Source: Patescibacteria group bacterium
GTDB lineage: Bacteria > Patescibacteriota > Patescibacteriia > UBA11705 > DATKZF01
Reading direction: 5' to 3'
Length of the DNA: 47,462 nucleotides
NCBI GenBank assembly: GCA_049319825.1
Contig: JBMORT010000002.1
Coordinates: 337,230 to 384,691, forward strand
In this document: positions 17,749 to 47,462 of the stretch, piece after piece
How the letters are laid out: the number at the start of each line of letters is the position of its first letter
Numbering within the stretch: position 1 is the first letter of the stretch
Translations under genes and position numbers: made by a program
The notes under the pieces: generated by a model
Databases searched by the model: none
What the model saw: only the letters and a program-made list of their open reading frames with translations
What the model was told of the DNA's origin: nothing

Positions 17749-18615
17749 ATGATCAATTTCCTTCACCATTACTCGCCTCGATCGATAATATTTTCCGTCG
17801 GCGGCCTTGATATTCATTGGTATGGTTTGTTGATGGTTCTCGGTGGTCTGCTTGGATTGTTTCTGGCATGGTATTTGGCCAGATACTTTAAAATTAACCG
17901 GCCTTGGCTGTTTGATTTGGCTTTTTGGTGGGCAATTTTCGGCTTGATCGGCGGACGCATATATTACGTGATTTACGCTTTCGATTTTTACAAAGATAAT
18001 CCGCTGGATATCTTTAAAATATGGCAAGGCGGGCTGGCCGTGCACGGCGTAATGATCGGCGCCTTTTGCGCCACATTCTTTTTCGCGCGCGCTAAGGGAA
18101 TTAATTGGTTGAAACTGTTTGATTTGTCGGCGATCGGTTTGGTGACGGCGCAGATTGTCGGTCGTTGGGGAAATTATTTTAATCAGGAATTGTTCGGCCG
18201 GCCGACCGATTTGGCCTGGGGCATTCCAATATTACCGATTAATCGACCGGTGGAATATATTGCCGAACAATTTTTTCATCCCACTTTTTTGTACGAATCT
18301 TTGCTGAATATCGTATTGCTCGGGATTTTGTTGATTTTGGTTTGGTTGCGGTTTGGTAAAAATATAGAGATAAAAAACGGTATCATTTTTTTCTCTTATA
18401 TTTTGGGCTATTCGATAATTAGATTCAATATGGAATTTTTGCGGCTCGATTACAGCCCGGTGGTTTTCGGCGTGCGTTGGGCGCAGCTATTCAGCGGTTT
18501 GCTGATTTTAGCGTCAATATTTTTTATCGTGTTCTGTTCGATCCGCAAAGGCAAGCGGACTCAAATAAAAAAGAAGATTGAAAAAAAAATCAATCTGATC
18601 AAGACTGAATTGTAG
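17749..18615 (+). CDS. lgt: Prolipoprotein diacylglyceryl transferase
   Basis: 288 aa, polytopic, with GGRIYYV, HG...G and GRWGNYFNQELFGRPT motifs. Confidence 0.93.
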   Translation: MINFLHHYSPRSIIFSVGGLDIHWYGLLMVLGGLLGLFLAWYLARYFKINRPWLFDLAFWWAIFGLIGGRIYYVIYAFDFYKDNPLDIFKIWQGGLAVHGVMIGAFCATFFFARAKGINWLKLFDLSAIGLVTAQIVGRWGNYFNQELFGRPTDLAWGIPILPINRPVEYIAEQFFHPTFLYESLLNIVLLGILLILVWLRFGKNIEIKNGIIFFSYILGYSIIRFNMEFLRLDYSPVVFGVRWAQLFSGLLILASIFFIVFCSIRKGKRTQIKKKIEKKINLIKTEL

Positions 18616-39256: not shown

Positions 39257-39335
39257 TTATTTGATTAGAAAAATTTACAATGTTAGTTATATGATATTCA
39301 ACTTAAATTCGACATAATTTTAATGTTACTTCTTC

Positions 39336-39408
39336 CCAATTTCGGCTCGCGCCGACCTACTTTTTGTAACCCTTCGGCTACGCTCAGGGCAGGCCAAAAA
39401 GTAGGCAA
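39336..39408. repeat. 73-bp repeat, copy A (identical to 44811-44883)
   Basis: CCAATTTCGGCTCGCGCCGACCTACTTTTTGTAACCCTTCGGCTACGCTCAGGGCAGGCCAAAAAGTAGGCAA. Contains TCGGC-tcgc-GCCGA and a 12-bp stem, CCTACTTTTTGG-type, formed with CCAAAAAGTAGG. Confidence 0.9.
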
Positions 39409-39791: not shown

Positions 39792-40409
39792 ATGAGTGAA
39801 GGAAAAGTCAGTGCGGGATCTGTTTTTTCTATCGTTACCGTGATCATGATGGTCGCGGTACTGGTAGTCGTGTTGGTCATCGCGTTCAAGGGCGACGGCC
39901 AGCCCCAGCCCGCGCCGGCTTCGACCGTCGCGGCTACGTCGTCTACGGCAACGCCGAGCGGCATCGGGATTTCCGACCTTAACGCGCTGGGTTCAAGTAT
40001 GAACCAGCGCATGGACGGCTTTGACGGCCGGCTCGGCGGGGTCGAGCGGGAAGTCGGCGAGGTCAAGCAAGGCCTTGTCGATGTCCGCAATGACCTCAAG
40101 GAAATGCCGGAGGTCATGCGGCAAATGCTGGTCGAGAGCGGTGGCCGCGGCATCCCCATGGGGTGCAATGGTCTGTCCAACTGCGGACGTTCTTGTCCGG
40201 ACGGCACCACCGGCTACCGAGTTGCGGACACCTTGCCGGACGGAAGGCGGGTGTATTACATCAAGTGCGACAAGGTGAGAACCAGGCGTGCTGCGCCGCC
40301 GGCGGCCCAGCCATCAGCTGAGGGCGCGACCCGTCACGTCAAGGAGACCTGGGCGTACCCGGTTCCCGGCGGCGGCTGGAGCGGGTACGAGACGCGATCC
40401 GTTCAGTAG
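39792..40409 (+). CDS. N-terminally anchored membrane protein with a coiled-coil segment and a Cys-containing C-domain
   Basis: TAGGAGGGACGAAA precedes the ATG. TM helix VFSIVTVIMMVAVLVVVLVIAF. GC-rich with GAC/GGC codon style. Confidence 0.7.
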   Translation: MSEGKVSAGSVFSIVTVIMMVAVLVVVLVIAFKGDGQPQPAPASTVAATSSTATPSGIGISDLNALGSSMNQRMDGFDGRLGGVEREVGEVKQGLVDVRNDLKEMPEVMRQMLVESGGRGIPMGCNGLSNCGRSCPDGTTGYRVADTLPDGRRVYYIKCDKVRTRRAAPPAAQPSAEGATRHVKETWAYPVPGGGWSGYETRSVQ

Positions 40410-40475
40410 TTGACCAAGACAAGAAGAAGGGAAGGAGGAAGCGGCAAGATACGGACAACTCTGTATTTTGCCTTT

Positions 40476-40516
40476 TGCACCGTTTATGCTTCAGAAAATG
40501 AAGCATGCGCGGTGCA
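40476..40516 (+). other. Strong nested intercistronic hairpin
   Basis: TGCACCG-ttt-ATGCTTCA-gaaaa-TGAAGCAT-gcg-CGGTGCA. No T-run follows. Confidence 0.5.
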
Positions 40517-40562
40517 GAAGAAACTGCAATAAACCATAACCGATTTAAGGGAGGAAATAATC

Positions 40563-41111
40563 ATGTCCAGCACGTCGTTCAAGGTGGTTGCGTTGGTCAC
40601 TTGTGTTTCATTTTTCTTCGTCGCCTGCGGGAGTTCGTCCAGTACGACGCGCAGGTCCAGCGCCAGCGCCGGGTACAACGGAAACGTGACGCTGGACCCG
40701 GTTCAGCAGGATCTGCGCGAGTGCGAGGCGCGCATTATGAGCGGCCTTGCCAATGGGCAGATGACCAGACTCAATTCCGGTCGAATCTGCAGGAACGCCG
40801 CCGGCACCCCGCACGTACAGCTCCGGAAGGAAGAGTACGTGGAAGGGAACGGACCGGTAGTTCGAGAGTGGCGGTCAGAAAACCTCCAGCCCGTGCCGTT
40901 CCCGTCGCCTTCGTCCTCATTTCAGGAGGAGGAGCAGATCGAGGACGATTCCAGCGTCTGGGATTGGCTGGGGCCGGTCCTGATCGCGACGGCGGTTCTT
41001 TCAACTACGGCCGCGCTCATCTGGGCGGCCGAAACCTGCCGTCTGTCGCCGTGCGTGGAGTACCACCGCGGCGTATCTCAGCAGAATGGTCTCACCGCAT
41101 TCCACTTTTAG
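40563..41111 (+). CDS. Lipoprotein with an additional C-terminal TM helix
   Basis: AGGGAGGAAATAATC precedes the ATG. Lipobox FFVAC/GSSSS. C-terminal helix LGPVLIATAVLSTTAALIWAA. Confidence 0.7.
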   Translation: MSSTSFKVVALVTCVSFFFVACGSSSSTTRRSSASAGYNGNVTLDPVQQDLRECEARIMSGLANGQMTRLNSGRICRNAAGTPHVQLRKEEYVEGNGPVVREWRSENLQPVPFPSPSSSFQEEEQIEDDSSVWDWLGPVLIATAVLSTTAALIWAAETCRLSPCVEYHRGVSQQNGLTAFHF

Positions 41112-41254
41112 TTCTTTTTTCCCCAATCGCCACGGCAATTGGGGTCTTAATCGAAGCTCATCAGCGAAAGCTAGTGATTTTCGACTAAGGAGCGAATTCA
41201 ACGAACAAACCGAACAGCACCAGTTAACAACACCAGTTTAGGAGGAAGAACATC

Positions 41255-44164
<2,910 letters not shown>

Positions 44165-44178
44165 GCGCTACCTAACTT

Positions 44179-44216
44179 GAGCTCTTGATCAACGATCAGG
44201 GGCTCTTTTATTTTTT
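44179..44216 (+). terminator. Rho-independent terminator closing the 39792-44164 operon
   Basis: GAGCTCTTGATC-aac-GATCAGGGGCTC followed by TTTTATTTTTT. Confidence 0.65.
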
Positions 44217-44275
44217 GAAAAGGGGACTACGAAACTACGAAAAGTTTCGAATTCTACGAAAACATGCCATATACA

Positions 44276-44304
44276 TTGACAAAATCGATAAAATATGATA
44301 TAAT
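44276..44304 (+). promoter_or_regulatory. Consensus promoter TTGACA-17-TATAAT, preceded by three CTACGAAA direct repeats
   Basis: Hexamers at 44276-44281 and 44299-44304. CTACGAAA at 44227, 44235 and 44254. Confidence 0.55.
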
Positions 44305-44336
44305 TATTTGATAAATCCAAACCAAGGAGAGTTGAA

Positions 44337-44714
44337 ATGACTCGTTTTTTTGCAGTTTTGGCGGCCTTTTTTAGCCTTCAGGGATGTGTTATCGACTATC
44401 AGGAAACGGCCAAAAGGGAAGAGGCCGGATCTATCGTCAATGATCCGATGCCCGAGGACCCGGGCCTGATTAAGCCGCGGGTCAATCTGGCCGACGCCCT
44501 CAACCGGGCAATCGACGAGGATCCGGTGGTGGTGGCGGATATCAAGCGATGCAAAAAGCTTAATATTCCGCCCAAACATTACCTCCCGTTCAAGGAGACG
44601 GGCAACCTCTGCGTGGCCGATAGGGATGGCCAAAAGGAGCTCAAAATTCATCCTGGACACATCGGCCGTATCAGGGACGGCCTTGAGCGCAAACTGGCTG
44701 GGAAAATGCCTTAA
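44337..44714 (+). CDS. Small lipoprotein (125 aa)
   Basis: AAGGAGAG precedes the ATG. Lipobox FSLQGC. Confidence 0.7.
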   Translation: MTRFFAVLAAFFSLQGCVIDYQETAKREEAGSIVNDPMPEDPGLIKPRVNLADALNRAIDEDPVVVADIKRCKKLNIPPKHYLPFKETGNLCVADRDGQKELKIHPGHIGRIRDGLERKLAGKMP

Positions 44715-44810
44715 ATTGGCGTTTTTTCGGCCATTTCCGCAGCTTTCGAAGCACTTCGAAGGCTGTTTTTATTATAAAATAGACTTTAATGCTTGTGTAA
44801 ATATTATTTT

Positions 44811-44883
44811 CCAATTTCGGCTCGCGCCGACCTACTTTTTGTAACCCTTCGGCTACGCTCAGGGCAGGCCAAAAAGTAGGCAA
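44811..44883. repeat. 73-bp repeat, copy B (identical to 39336-39408)
   Basis: Base-for-base identical by eye, in the same orientation. Confidence 0.9.
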
Positions 44884-44933
44884 CCTGTCATCGCTTATTT
44901 ATAATATTTTTGTAAAGTATTTACCATTATTTC

Positions 44934-44958
44934 GTCTTCATTATTGAAGACATTTTTT
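44934..44958 (+). terminator. Rho-independent terminator
   Basis: GTCTTCA-ttat-TGAAGAC followed by ATTTTTT. Confidence 0.6.
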
Positions 44959-45017
44959 GTTCAAATTTATACAAAAAATAGGCGTTTGACGCGTATTGAA
45001 AATTATGGCCGAAAAAC

Positions 45018-45046
45018 TTGACAAAATAAGTGTTTTTTGCTAAGGT
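45018..45046 (+). promoter_or_regulatory. Candidate promoter TTGACA-17-TAAGGT
   Basis: Hexamers at 45018-45023 and 45041-45046. Confidence 0.4.
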
Positions 45047-45207
45047 AAGGAGTCAAAATTATTCTGGGATGATTGTGCCTTGTTAATAAAAAACTGCCTG
45101 AAAACGGTCTGAAAAAAATTTTTTGGATGGTTTTCAGCCAGCATTTTGCTGGCGCTCGGTTCGTTGACAACCACCCTTTTCAACAAGGGAATAAAAAGGA
45201 GAGAAAA

Positions 45208-47462
45208 ATGAAGAAGAAGAACGAAAGGCGTCTGGTCAACTCGCTTTGCGGACTGATTTTCATTTTCGGCTGGGGGATTTTCGGCTGCTCCGACAAGAAT
45301 CAATGTACTTTCAGCGATGAATGCGGCGCGGGCGAGGCCTGCGTCAATCACCATTGTGTGACCGGAAGCAGCGTCTCGCACGAGACGCCTGATGTGCCGG
45401 CCAGCTCGGATAGCCCGAGCGGCGGAGGAAATTCTGATACGACCAATCCTCCGCCCAGCACCAATCCGCCTCCGGCGGCTTGTACGCCGACCGGCATCGA
45501 AAAGTGCGACGGGCTCGACAATGACTGTGATGGTCTGGTCGATGAAGACGTACTCAACGACTGCGGATCCTGCGGGCCAGTGCCTGCGGAGATCTGCAAT
45601 GGCGAAGACGACGACTGCGACGGAGACGTCGATGAAGGACTTCGAAACGATTGCGGCCACTGCGGGCCGATTCCGCCTGAAGAGTGCGGCAACAAGCTCG
45701 ACGATGACTGCGACGGCGATATCGACGAAGGCTGTGAATGCAAAATCGTCGGTGAAACCGAGGTCTGTGAGATCGGAGATCTTCTGGGCCAGTGCAAGTT
45801 TGGTGAGCGTGTCTGCACGCATGACTACAACTGGAGCCATTGCATGCAGGTTGTTTTCCCGGAACCGGAAATCTGCAACGACTGGGATGACGACTGCGAT
45901 GGACAGATTGATGAAGAGTTGATCAACAACTGCGGCCAATGCGGTTTGCCGCCGGCCGAAATCTGCGACGGCTACGACAACGATTGTGACGGTGACATCG
46001 ATGAAGGCTGCGAATGCCTTATCGGTCAGCATCGCCTGTGCGGCACCAATATCGGCCTTTGTCAGCAGGGTATTGAAACCTGCGTCAGCTACGGCAGTGG
46101 TGTCGGTCACTGGTCGGATTGTGTCGGCGCCATCGAGCCGGATGTTGAAATCTGCGATGGTCGCGACAACAACTGCGACAGCGTCATCGACAACGGCTGC
46201 GCCTGCACCATCGGCGAGACCCGCTCCTGCGGGATCGATATCGGTCAGTGCTCGCGCGGTATTCAAACATGCGTCGATAACGGCGCTGGCCTGGGTACCT
46301 GGAGCGACTGCGCCGGATCATTTGTCGGCCCGGACGTGGAAATCTGCGACGGGCAGGACAATAACTGCGACGGCCATATCGACGAAGATTTGCTCAACGC
46401 CTGCGGGACGTGCGGCCAGGCGCCGGACGAAATCTGCGACGGCGAAGACAATGACTGCGACAGCGCCATCGATGAGGGCTGCGATTGCACCGTCGGCTGG
46501 AGCCGTGAGTGCGGTTCTGACCTTGGTGAGTGCGTCATCGGGACCCAGAATTGCTACGACGACGGGAACGGACTGGGCATCTGGGGTACCTGCGAAGGCG
46601 CCTTTGTCGGTCCGAATATGGAAATTTGCGACGGTTTGGACAATGACTGCGATGGTGACGCCGACGAAGCGTTACTAAACATGTGCGGCCAGTGCGGCGT
46701 GGTCCCTGCGGAGATCTGCGACGGCGTTGATAACGACTGCGACGGCGGGATCGACGAGGACTGCGACTGCACGATCGGGCAGGCCAAAACCTGCGGCACC
46801 GATATGGGGCAGTGCGAGTTCGGTATCCAGATCTGCTATGATCTGGGCAATCATATGGGCTACTGGGGCGATTGCGAAGAGCCCTTTGTCGGTCCGAGCG
46901 TTGAAGTCTGCGACGGCGCGGACAATGACTGCGACGGCGGGATCGACGAGGGGTGCGACTGCACGATCGGGATCATTCGCGTCTGCGGATCGACCATGGG
47001 CGTGTGTGAACTCGGTACCCAGGAATGCCTGGACAATGGTTATGGCATCGGTTATTGGGGCGAATGTCTCAATGACACGGAGCCGAGCGTAGAGATCTGC
47101 GACGGAGCGGACAACAACTGCGACGGCGCGATCGATGAAGGCTGCACGTGTACTATCGGTCAGTTCATCGGCTGCGGCTCTGATTTGGGCGAATGCGTGC
47201 GCGGCACGCAGGAATGCCTGGATTTGGGTAACGGTACGGGCTACTGGTCCGATTGCGGCGGTTCGTTTGTCGGTCCGATGACCGAGACCTGCAATGGTCT
47301 GGATGACGATTGCGACGGCGATGCCGACGAGGAGTTGCTCAACGCGTGCGGAACTTGCGGGCCGGTGCCCGCGGAGCTCTGCGACGGCGTTGACAACGAT
47401 TGCGACGGCGACGTCGACGAGAACTGCCAGTGCACGATCGGCCAGACCGAGTCCTGCGGGAC
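45208..47462 (+). CDS. Giant cysteine-rich repeat lipoprotein (more than 751 codons, open at the window end); absent from the ORF track
   Basis: AAAAGGAGAGAAAA precedes ATG 45208. I translated this frame by hand to 47460 and found no stop. Sequence MKKKNERRLVNSLCGLIFIFGWGIFGC/SDK (lipobox), then a Pro-rich linker, then at least 14 CDG.D[ND][ND]CD[GS]..DE motifs. These alternate with C.C.IG..R.CG...G.C..G.Q.C modules and LLN.CG.CG..P.E modules. Confidence 0.88.
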   Translation, partial: MKKKNERRLVNSLCGLIFIFGWGIFGCSDKNQCTFSDECGAGEACVNHHCVTGSSVSHETPDVPASSDSPSGGGNSDTTNPPPSTNPPPAACTPTGIEKCDGLDNDCDGLVDEDVLNDCGSCGPVPAEICNGEDDDCDGDVDEGLRNDCGHCGPIPPEECGNKLDDDCDGDIDEGCECKIVGETEVCEIGDLLGQCKFGERVCTHDYNWSHCMQVVFPEPEICNDWDDDCDGQIDEELINNCGQCGLPPAEICDGYDNDCDGDIDEGCECLIGQHRLCGTNIGLCQQGIETCVSYGSGVGHWSDCVGAIEPDVEICDGRDNNCDSVIDNGCACTIGETRSCGIDIGQCSRGIQTCVDNGAGLGTWSDCAGSFVGPDVEICDGQDNNCDGHIDEDLLNACGTCGQAPDEICDGEDNDCDSAIDEGCDCTVGWSRECGSDLGECVIGTQNCYDDGNGLGIWGTCEGAFVGPNMEICDGLDNDCDGDADEALLNMCGQCGVVPAEICDGVDNDCDGGIDEDCDCTIGQAKTCGTDMGQCEFGIQICYDLGNHMGYWGDCEEPFVGPSVEVCDGADNDCDGGIDEGCDCTIGIIRVCGSTMGVCELGTQECLDNGYGIGYWGECLNDTEPSVEICDGADNNCDGAIDEGCTCTIGQFIGCGSDLGECVRGTQECLDLGNGTGYWSDCGGSFVGPMTETCNGLDDDCDGDADEELLNACGTCGPVPAELCDGVDNDCDGDVDENCQCTIGQTESCG

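Follow-up and report, generated by a model that had tools for sequence, protein, structure and literature searches.

Gene, reading frame and coding strand

What does the 3' end of the window, i.e., the whole analysed stretch of 47,462 nucleotides (nt) from a Patescibacteria genome (G000:C2:337230-384691), encode: a giant plus-strand gene starting at ATG 45208, or the minus-strand open reading frame (ORF) of 408 amino acids (aa) that faces it? An initial annotation had proposed the former, read its product as a repeat-rich lipoprotein and called the minus-strand ORF a shadow. We find this main interpretation supported and essentially right, while the observations behind it are confirmed in part. 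With a probability of about 0.8, we consider 45208-47460 to be the 5' 751 codons of a gene for a giant lipid-anchored, disulfide-stapled, probably Ca2+-stabilised attachment fibre of a Patescibacteria bacterium, which most likely continues on another contig (C1) of the same assembly.

Direct translation of the plus frame from ATG 45208 through 47460 yields 751 codons with 0 stops, i.e., an overlooked in-frame stop was looked for and none is present. If open-ended ORFs are allowed, the same frame is stop-free back to TTG 45073 (45073-47460, 796 codons), for which the local base composition gives a chance expectation of ~3e-12. The claimed Shine-Dalgarno (SD) site stands in front of the ATG (Table 1). 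Position 47460 ends the last complete codon of contig C2, and the window stops exactly at the end of C2. The gene is therefore truncated at its 3' side by an assembly break. It is absent from the first-stage ORF track because it runs off the window end; the four ORFs listed there instead (45040-46266 on the minus strand; 45392-45922, 45986-46678 and 46727-47092 on the plus strand) are all present. The gene had thus been missed by that track only, as a partial-gene caller already had the exact partial product, which stands in the public protein collection (P0003, 752 aa). An alternative genetic code was ruled out: TGA terminates 61/328 long ORFs, and the genes read intact with table 11.

The frames were scored with a codon model for which 324 long ORFs from this genome had served as training set. 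The plus frame reaches 0.279 and is the best of the six frames, compared to 0.092 for the best antisense frame and 0.102 for the 408-aa minus-strand ORF. The mismatches between repeat copies point the same way. They fall on plus-frame codon position 3 with fractions of 0.49 (long modules) and 0.53 (short modules), and on positions 1 and 2 with fractions of 0.21-0.29. Since plus-frame position 3 is codon position 1 of the minus-strand ORF, the latter would be most variable at its first codon position. That is, the plus frame is under purifying selection and the minus-strand ORF is its shadow. The 45208 frame is a genuine plus-strand gene.

The probability that the minus-strand ORF (45040-46266) is a real gene, or a second gene overlapping the first, is virtually nil. 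It is long, as 408 stop-free codons are expected at ~1e-6 under a simple base-composition model, but long shadows are expected opposite GAC-, TGC- and GGC-rich codons. Its codon score stays below that of the plus frame, the differences between repeat copies peak at its first codon position, its start lies upstream of the promoter region of the plus-strand gene, and matches of the antisense translations to relatives are confined to stretches that mirror the repeat gene. Antisense shadows as long or longer accompany every homologue, e.g., 1,524 aa opposite the homologue L010 and 2,240 aa opposite that of the related genome G001, such that these shadows are systematic for the repeat-protein family (PF11617, see below).

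Module anatomy of the encoded protein

The N-terminus of the product (MKKKNERR...GWGIFGC) has a basic, K/R-rich start, a 17-residue hydrophobic stretch and then I-F-G-C27, with G-C at positions 26-27 as in the GIFGC lipoprotein signal reported before. We take this to agree with the PROSITE PS51257-type lipoprotein rule. Positional orthologues in the related genomes G001 and G002 have lipobox-type N-termini as well (LLAGC and the less canonical FLANC, respectively). Furthermore, the present genome encodes Lgt (PF01790, C2:355014-355760 = window 17785-18531, E = 3e-67) and the signal peptidase II LspA (PF01252, C2:81377-81790, E = 8e-28). Given this machinery and the N-termini of the orthologues, a lipoprotein reading of the product is plausible.

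A 4-Cys knot of the pattern QC..DEC..GE.C....C and an S/T/P-rich linker lead to the repeat body. The only Pfam match of the knot is a weak, sub-threshold one to the Dumpy DPY module (E = 0.0017), which together with PF11617 is also all that a relaxed Pfam scan of the single modules returned. The body comprises 14 modules, i.e., six short (S) and eight long (L) ones, where the latter include a variant L' and one cut L. They follow one another without a regular pattern (S S L' S L L S L S L L L S L(cut)). Both types are built on an acidic core, E-x-C-D-G-x-D-N-D-C-D-G-x-x-D-E, that corresponds to the C-terminal half of PF11617. The S module has 30 aa and 4 Cys (consensus E.C[DN]G.D[DN][DN]CDG..DE.L.N.CG.CG..P.), the L module 63-64 aa and 8 Cys (consensus E.CDG.DN[DN]CD..IDEGC.C..G..R.CG...G.C..G.Q.C...G.G.G.W..C.G.F.GP..). 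A regular super-repeat of ~125 aa in three parts, as described initially, does not emerge from this alignment. Two of the three parts (the second and the third) together form one L module, and the offset of 127 aa is L+L; self-similarity is strongest at offsets of 315, 221 and 94 aa.

The composition of the 751-aa product is dominated by 15.6% Gly, 14.2% Asp and 12.3% Cys. Among 68 L modules, taken from three genomes, every one of the eight Cys is invariant, as are E1, D7, D9 and D15, and these four acidic positions are kept in both modules of 34/34 L-L pairs from the same genomes. D7 and D15 are likewise invariant in 26/26 S units. AlphaFold2, run on module alignments, predicts for an L-L pair (predicted local distance difference test, pLDDT, 87.5; predicted template modelling score, pTM, 0.50) that each L forms a loop-rich core followed by a three-stranded sheet. 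For an S module plus the next core (pLDDT 91), it predicts loops only, without regular secondary structure. The local models are confident and suggest small loop/hairpin modules in tandem. The coordinates of all features are collected in Table 1.

Table 1. Features of the 45208 gene, of its product and of its surroundings (positions in the window; CDS, coding sequence).
Feature	Position	Strand	Evidence or remark
Shine-Dalgarno AGGAG	45197..45201	+	six bases 5' of ATG, read from sequence
CDS of Cys-rich repeat lipoprotein, 751 codons, 3'-open	45208..47460	+	no stops; PF11617 E = 5e-51; top codon score of six frames; identical product in public collection (P0003)
Signal peptide with lipobox, residues 1-27, MKKKNERRLVNSLCGLIFIFGWGIFG/C	45208..45288	+	sequence pattern; putative lipidation
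N-terminal 4-Cys knot, residues 28-50, SDKNQCTFSDECGAGEACVNHHC	45289..45357	+	conserved in G001 and G002 positional orthologues
S/T/P-rich linker, residues 51-97, ending PPPAACTPTGI before first module	45358..45498	+	linker and PPPAxCTP motif also in G002
Two S modules, 30 aa and 4 Cys each	45499..45678	+	module alignment; AlphaFold model of S plus next core
Variant long module L', 63 aa, 8 Cys, core CGNKLDDDCDG with one additional residue	45679..45867	+	
Modules S, L, L, residues 221-377	45868..46338	+	
Modules S, L, S, residues 378-501	46339..46710	+	
Modules L, L, L, residues 502-692	46711..47283	+	
Module S and L module cut at 29 residues by contig end	47284..47460	+	
Antisense shadow ORF of 408 aa, not a gene	45040..46266	-	codon score 0.10 vs. 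0.28 plus; its codon position 1 holds most inter-copy differences
Neighbouring 969-aa Cys-rich protein, 8 full-length PF11617 motifs	41255..44164	+	PF11617 293 bits; only motif core common with 45208 protein
76-nt structured direct repeat in 5' intergenic region	44808..44883	+	other copy 39333-39408; no evidence of belonging to 45208 gene

Family membership and relatives

The product matches the Pfam family PF11617 (Cu-binding_MopE, 'putative metal-binding motif') in 10 stretches with 170.9 bits (E = 5.3e-51; gathering threshold 27 bits), while NCBIfam gave no match. Of the 30 positions of the motif, each stretch covers 8-30, 11-30 or 14-30 only, whereas the neighbouring 41255 protein and the ORF on C1 match positions 1-30. 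The 45208 protein is thus a core-only variant in which the full motif (DxDxDG...DC.D......PGA.E.CDG.DNDCDG) is not seen. The initial annotation had paired it with the 41255 protein as a paralogue-like partner. Both do have the CDGxDNDCDG core in common, but they align with 30% identity at 29% gaps and their module sets differ, which makes them motif relatives rather than close paralogues. The lengths of the two add up to 1,720 aa (969 + 751) and thereby exceed the 1,700 aa ascribed to two adjacent genes. Strictly adjacent they are not, as a gene for a 125-aa lipoprotein (44337-44714) and the 76-nt repeat of Table 1 lie between them.

In the public protein collection, 2,994 homologues are matched in the plus frame at E <= 1e-10, and apart from the window's own product P0003 none of them exceeds 42% identity. 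They are named 'MopE-related protein' or 'putative metal-binding motif-containing protein' and come from Patescibacteria and Myxococcota. The top genomic matches are Patescibacteria, i.e., a closed Candidatus Gracilibacteria chromosome, an unclassified metagenome-assembled genome (MAG) and a Candidatus Peribacteria MAG, followed by a long Myxococcota tail. Full-length relatives with a lipobox and then S and/or L modules are L009 (1,337 aa, S-rich, from the closed Gracilibacteria chromosome) as well as L010 (1,333 aa) and L011 (1,758 aa), both of which are all L. Collinearity with the best full-length homologues (P0004-P0006) was uninformative, their termini being too variable, and a comparison of the flanks with the best-match loci L009, L010, L011 and L016 found only the repeat genes themselves to match. 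Judged by its sequence, the 45208 gene belongs to a known and already annotated repeat family and is not a new kind of gene.

Does the family name apply, i.e., could the product bind or acquire copper like MopE of Methylococcus capsulatus? The strong PF11617 match and the 'MopE-related' label that NCBI gives to the relatives suggest so, and the N-terminus of MopE* has a D-rich stretch that may play a part in weak Cu(II) binding (PMC3423442). Yet the proven Cu(I) site of MopE consists of His132, His203 and kynurenine130 in a C-terminal beta-sheet domain (PMC3423442, PMC3912023), and no PDB chain matches the 45208 product (phmmer, E <= 0.1; profiles, E <= 10). The PF11617-like stretch of MopE is disordered and was never shown to be a copper site, and only parts of the motif (from position 8, 11 or 14 onwards) are matched here in any case. 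In addition, there are only 10 His in the 751 residues, and these do not recur at one module position. Copper binding by the 45208 protein, very unlikely in our estimate, is not supported by its sequence features.

Probable continuation across the assembly gap

Extending the contig, as had been proposed as a check, ends with the window itself, since the window end is the end of C2. Among all contig ends, only the 3' end of C2 and the 3' end of C1 carry the motif. The reverse strand of C1 opens inside a module and in register: its sequence, AGAYIGPAAEICDGVDNDCDG..., consists of an L-module tail and then an S module. The 5'-open ORF found there has 490 codons to its stop and is followed by genes for a glycosyltransferase at C1:29287-30525, HrcA, GrpE and DnaK.

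The order of the two contigs can be derived from related genomes. In G001 (same family, 3 contigs), one contig carries genes for an AI-2E transporter, DUF5656, an HtrA-like and a GNVR protein, and then a GC-rich island. The order continues with three genes for Cys-rich lipoproteins of 517, 570 and 2,405 aa, a gene of 513 aa, and then those for the orthologous glycosyltransferase, HrcA, GrpE, Hsp20 and DnaK. This contiguous order equals the C2 end plus the reverse strand of C1 in the present genome. The locus of G002 is itself broken inside the same gene. One part (L091, G002:C7:1-2920, minus) extends beyond the start of its contig and encodes at least 935 aa, while the other (L092, G002:C2:1-1898, plus) is a 5'-open frame of 632 aa in front of the same glycosyltransferase. 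The two halves fit together in module register. The synteny with G001 and G002 implies that the C2 end precedes the C1 reverse strand, and we consider it very likely from register and gene order that the 45208 gene continues in the 490-aa ORF. If this join holds, the full protein probably has at least 1,241 aa (751 + 490, plus the gap). A C-terminal signature (terminal core plus short tail) gives weak support to the join, as it is common to several paralogues. Repeat genes of the PF11617 type systematically fragment short-read MAGs.

Locus variability between related genomes

The three positional orthologues have the anchor end in common, while their repeat bodies differ in kind. Compared to its G002 orthologue, the 45208 product shows 40% identity in its N-terminal ~120 residues, where knot, linker and first core are alike. 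The body here mixes S and L modules and, if the C1 ORF is the C-terminus, possibly continues with CGNGxCExGE...CPxDC units and full PF11617 motifs. In G002, all modules are of L type. The orthologue in G001 (G001:C2 about 57778-64995, minus strand; L089/L090) is a 2,405-aa lipoprotein with 17.5% Cys, whose body consists of ~110 tandem ~20-aa CGDGxCxxxExxxxCPxDC units and a single PF11617 motif. The repeat body is fast-evolving at a conserved locus, as expected of a host-contact protein. This variability fits the Peribacteria genome paper (PMC4736985), which names strain differences in large Cys-rich extracellular proteins as a major contributor to genotypic variety.

Tentatively, and with clear doubt, the slot from the GNVR/HtrA-like genes to glycosyltransferase-hrcA-grpE-dnaK might be viewed as a conserved 'surface-fibre cassette site', in which the anchor end with signal peptide, lipobox, 4-Cys knot and S/T/P linker is kept, the whole body is exchanged between sister genera for another type of Cys-rich module, and the dialect of C-ending codons (GC3, the GC content of third codon positions, 0.72-0.80) is maintained. 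If true, module replacement would be a route to changed host or surface specificity in episymbiotic bacteria that is distinct from diversification by point mutations or by diversity-generating retroelements (DGR-type).

Base composition

The genome has 1.16 Mb in 10 contigs, is 99% complete and uses the standard genetic code. While its GC content is 0.44 and its GC3 0.51, the 45208 gene reaches 0.59 and 0.72, with the synonymous choice flipped to GAC, AAC and ATC. All family members in this genome are at or above the 95th percentile of GC3. A like GC contrast is found for L009, L010 and L011 and in the syntenic island of G001 (L089/L090, G001:C2:48500-78000). Over all these Cys-rich lipoprotein genes and islands (including window 39800-47462), GC is 0.59-0.69 and GC3 0.72-0.80, compared to a GC of 0.38-0.51 in the flanks.

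Such a contrast raises the question of foreign DNA, i.e., of a recent acquisition from Myxococcota or of a mis-binned or chimeric assembly piece. Both the deviation of the gene from its genome and the Myxococcota origin of the majority of database homologues would fit. But the gene sits within a 384-kb contig, with AT-rich intergenic DNA and an SD site of the host type, and its nearest relatives are Patescibacteria (41-42% identity). GC-rich genes of the same kind occur between flanks of lower GC (0.38-0.51) in four other Patescibacteria genomes, and the locus is syntenic in G001 and G002. Furthermore, PF11617 is found in 26/41 relatives and, at E <= 1e-9, in 13/151 genomes sampled across the phylum (the window's own included), i.e., the family is native but patchy. 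Since the same GC contrast recurs across genera, there is no sign of a recent transfer. The GC-rich codon habit is a conserved trait of these genes and not the mark of such an event, and a foreign origin is extremely unlikely.

As a side observation, several ORFs of contig C3 (18.5 kb; e.g., C3:5252-12073 and C3:16467-17459) show a GC of 0.62-0.69 and a GC3 of 0.72-0.84, and some are Cys-rich and lipoprotein-like. C3 also encodes a second AI-2E transporter that is 49% identical to the window's copy. The contig may be another GC-rich island or mis-binned.

Proposed function

Ultra-small Patescibacteria presumably live attached to other cells, by means of contact molecules that are largely unknown. 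Giant Cys-rich lipoproteins that take up ~1.5% of a 1.16-Mb genome are therefore prime candidates for this role. For the 45208 product, we stated gene, frame, family, module anatomy, synteny and lipoprotein machinery as observed; from here on, we infer lipidation, disulfides, Ca2+ binding and adhesion. The repeat protein would be exported via Sec and lipidated by Lgt/LspA at the lipobox Cys. DsbA-like oxidoreductases, for which the genome has two candidate genes of the Thioredoxin_4 type (C2:210539-211015 and C9:74649-75131), would then form four disulfides per long and two per short module. The acidic cores would bind Ca2+, not copper. A stiff fibre with the modules as beads on a string could thus project from the cell and mediate attachment to a host cell or a surface.

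Several observations weigh against this fibre model. The lipobox has an atypical Phe at position -2. The search for a partner of the DsbA-like proteins revealed neither DsbB nor VKOR in the genome. The proposed Ca2+ binding follows from motif resemblance and not from homology: HMMER profiles of the modules gave no match among the PDB sequences, and hhalign against the teneurin core aligned 6 columns only (DNDCDG/DNDGDG; E = 0.036, probability 1.4%). Foldseek against the PDB likewise gave nothing significant, with best E values of 0.17 (L-L) and 5.6 (S). As to the continuation, no dovetail overlap joins the C2 end with the C1 end. Two codon-degenerate scans of metagenome contigs, for the terminal residues of the C2 ORF and for the initial ones of the C1 ORF, gave 0 matches each, and the gap between C2 and C1 could hold more than one gene. 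Finally, if the C1 ORF is the true C-terminus, the protein seems to have no recognisable ligand-binding head domain, so that adhesion is argued from analogy.

This last point leads to an alternative in which the protein is a structural component of the envelope rather than an adhesin, e.g., a Ca2+-cross-linked coat, a spacer of cell wall or S-layer, or a protective shield. A protein that may be repeats from end to end suits this role, as do ~10 paralogues that occupy 1.5% of the 1.16-Mb genome and a C-ending, GC-rich codon usage as might be expected for abundant envelope proteins. The Peribacteria study also proposes rigidity from high Cys content (PMC4736985). On the other hand, the wholesale replacement of the repeat body between sister genera fits a contact molecule exposed to hosts or phages better than a housekeeping scaffold, and the patchy distribution given above (26/41 relatives; 13/151 phylum genomes) speaks against such a scaffold as well. 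We hold the structural role to be unlikely, though less so than copper binding, and prefer the attachment fibre, for which the adhesive role is suggested by analogy.

Genome context and neighbouring genes

Genome-wide, 53 PF11617 matches are found in ~10 ORFs, nearly all of which start with a signal or lipobox N-terminus. These paralogues sum up to ~5,800 aa (1.5% of the genome) and form three clusters. Two of these clusters lie outside the window and consist of PF11617-type genes for Cys-rich secreted proteins or lipoproteins: four in tandem at C6:323162-329858 (minus strand) and two at C2:192347-203666. At the DNA level, the window gene is most similar to a stretch in the short genes of C6 (260 and 186 aa). 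Even this best stretch between paralogues shows only 87% identity over 121 nt, i.e., no sign of recent gene conversion among the paralogues is seen. The genome also encodes thousands of extracytoplasmic cysteines, yet no DsbB or VKOR was detected.

The 125-aa lipoprotein gene between the two giant genes (lipobox SLQGC) belongs to no Pfam family. A perfect TTGACA-17-TATAAT promoter with TG extension (44276-44304) precedes it, and a hairpin/T-run terminator of its own follows (44739-44766). The 76-nt direct repeat next to it is identical to its other copy at 73 nt, brackets four genes with it, and is predicted to fold into two hairpins (z = -3.3). These two copies are the only full ones in the genome, and none was found in the syntenic regions of G001 and G002. 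An Rfam search of the upstream region and the repeat returned nothing credible.

Comparison with known systems

The main interest of the locus lies in its variability and in its annotation pitfalls, while the 45208 gene itself is ordinary. For annotation, the lesson is that such genes break short-read assemblies, overrun contig ends and are faced by antisense shadow ORFs, hundreds to thousands of codons long, which may be mis-called. What is added here to the known systems is a clean module anatomy, together with the finding that the 'copper' label of PF11617 is without support for these proteins.

Compared to the PF11617 proteins of Patescibacteria and Myxococcota, the 45208 protein shows the same CDGxDNDCDG cores, a signal peptide or lipobox, a very high Cys/Asp/Gly content, a size class of 1,000-2,400 aa, and the L-type module C.C..G..R.CG...G.C..G.Q.C...W..C. 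It differs in being at most 42% identical to any on record and in using the C-terminal half of the 30-position motif only. With its mix of S and L modules, it lies between L009 (S-rich) and L010/L011 (all L).

With MopE/CorA of methanotrophs, it has in common the surface association and the short D-rich, Cys-containing motif after which PF11617 is named. The solved structures of MopE* and CorA define a beta-sheet Cu(I) domain with a His/His/kynurenine site (PMC3423442, PMC3912023). Neither this domain nor this site nor any PDB sequence match is found for the 45208 protein. Moreover, MopE has one or two such motifs in an unresolved region, whereas the motif is the repeating unit here.

The acidic core D-N-D-x-D-G-x-x-D flanked by Cys resembles those of teneurin C-rich, thrombospondin type 3 (TSP3) and LDL-A modules, all from extracellular proteins of the adhesion type. 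In teneurin, the C-rich core D-N-D-G-D-G-x-x-D binds three Ca2+ with TSP3-like and LDL-A-like geometry (PMC9058538), and it has been aligned with the PF11617 consensus (PMC3278476). We liken the invariant acidic positions of our modules to teneurin D843/D845/D851, based on an alignment by eye against PMC9058538. Cys pattern and module length differ, and neither HMMER nor Foldseek matches the two. Tandem fibronectin type I modules are similar in that small disulfide-stabilised beta-hairpin modules follow each other head to tail, and they are the best, though non-significant, Foldseek match of the L-L pair (E = 0.17-0.5). With TM-scores of 0.18-0.27 and no sequence similarity, the likeness is one of architecture only.

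The closest parallel is found in Candidatus Peribacter riflensis, for which large, signal-peptide-bearing, very Cys-rich extracellular proteins have been described that are clustered and strain-variable and for which attachment was proposed (PMC4736985). That report gives no module anatomy or motif assignment. The genome of Peribacter riflensis has a GC content of 58.5%, in which the Cys-rich genes are not outstanding, whereas they form GC-rich patches in a genome of 44% GC here. Both organisms presumably belong to the same wider lineage, given the closest matches in Gracilibacteria and Peribacteria MAGs. The two sets of proteins agree in large size, signal peptide, very high Cys content, clustering, likeness to Cys-rich repeats of Myxococcus, variability between strains or genera, and the presence of Lgt. 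For the protein studied here, this amounts to at least 751 aa (probably at least 1,241), 12.3% Cys, ~10 paralogues in three clusters and mostly Myxococcota homologues.

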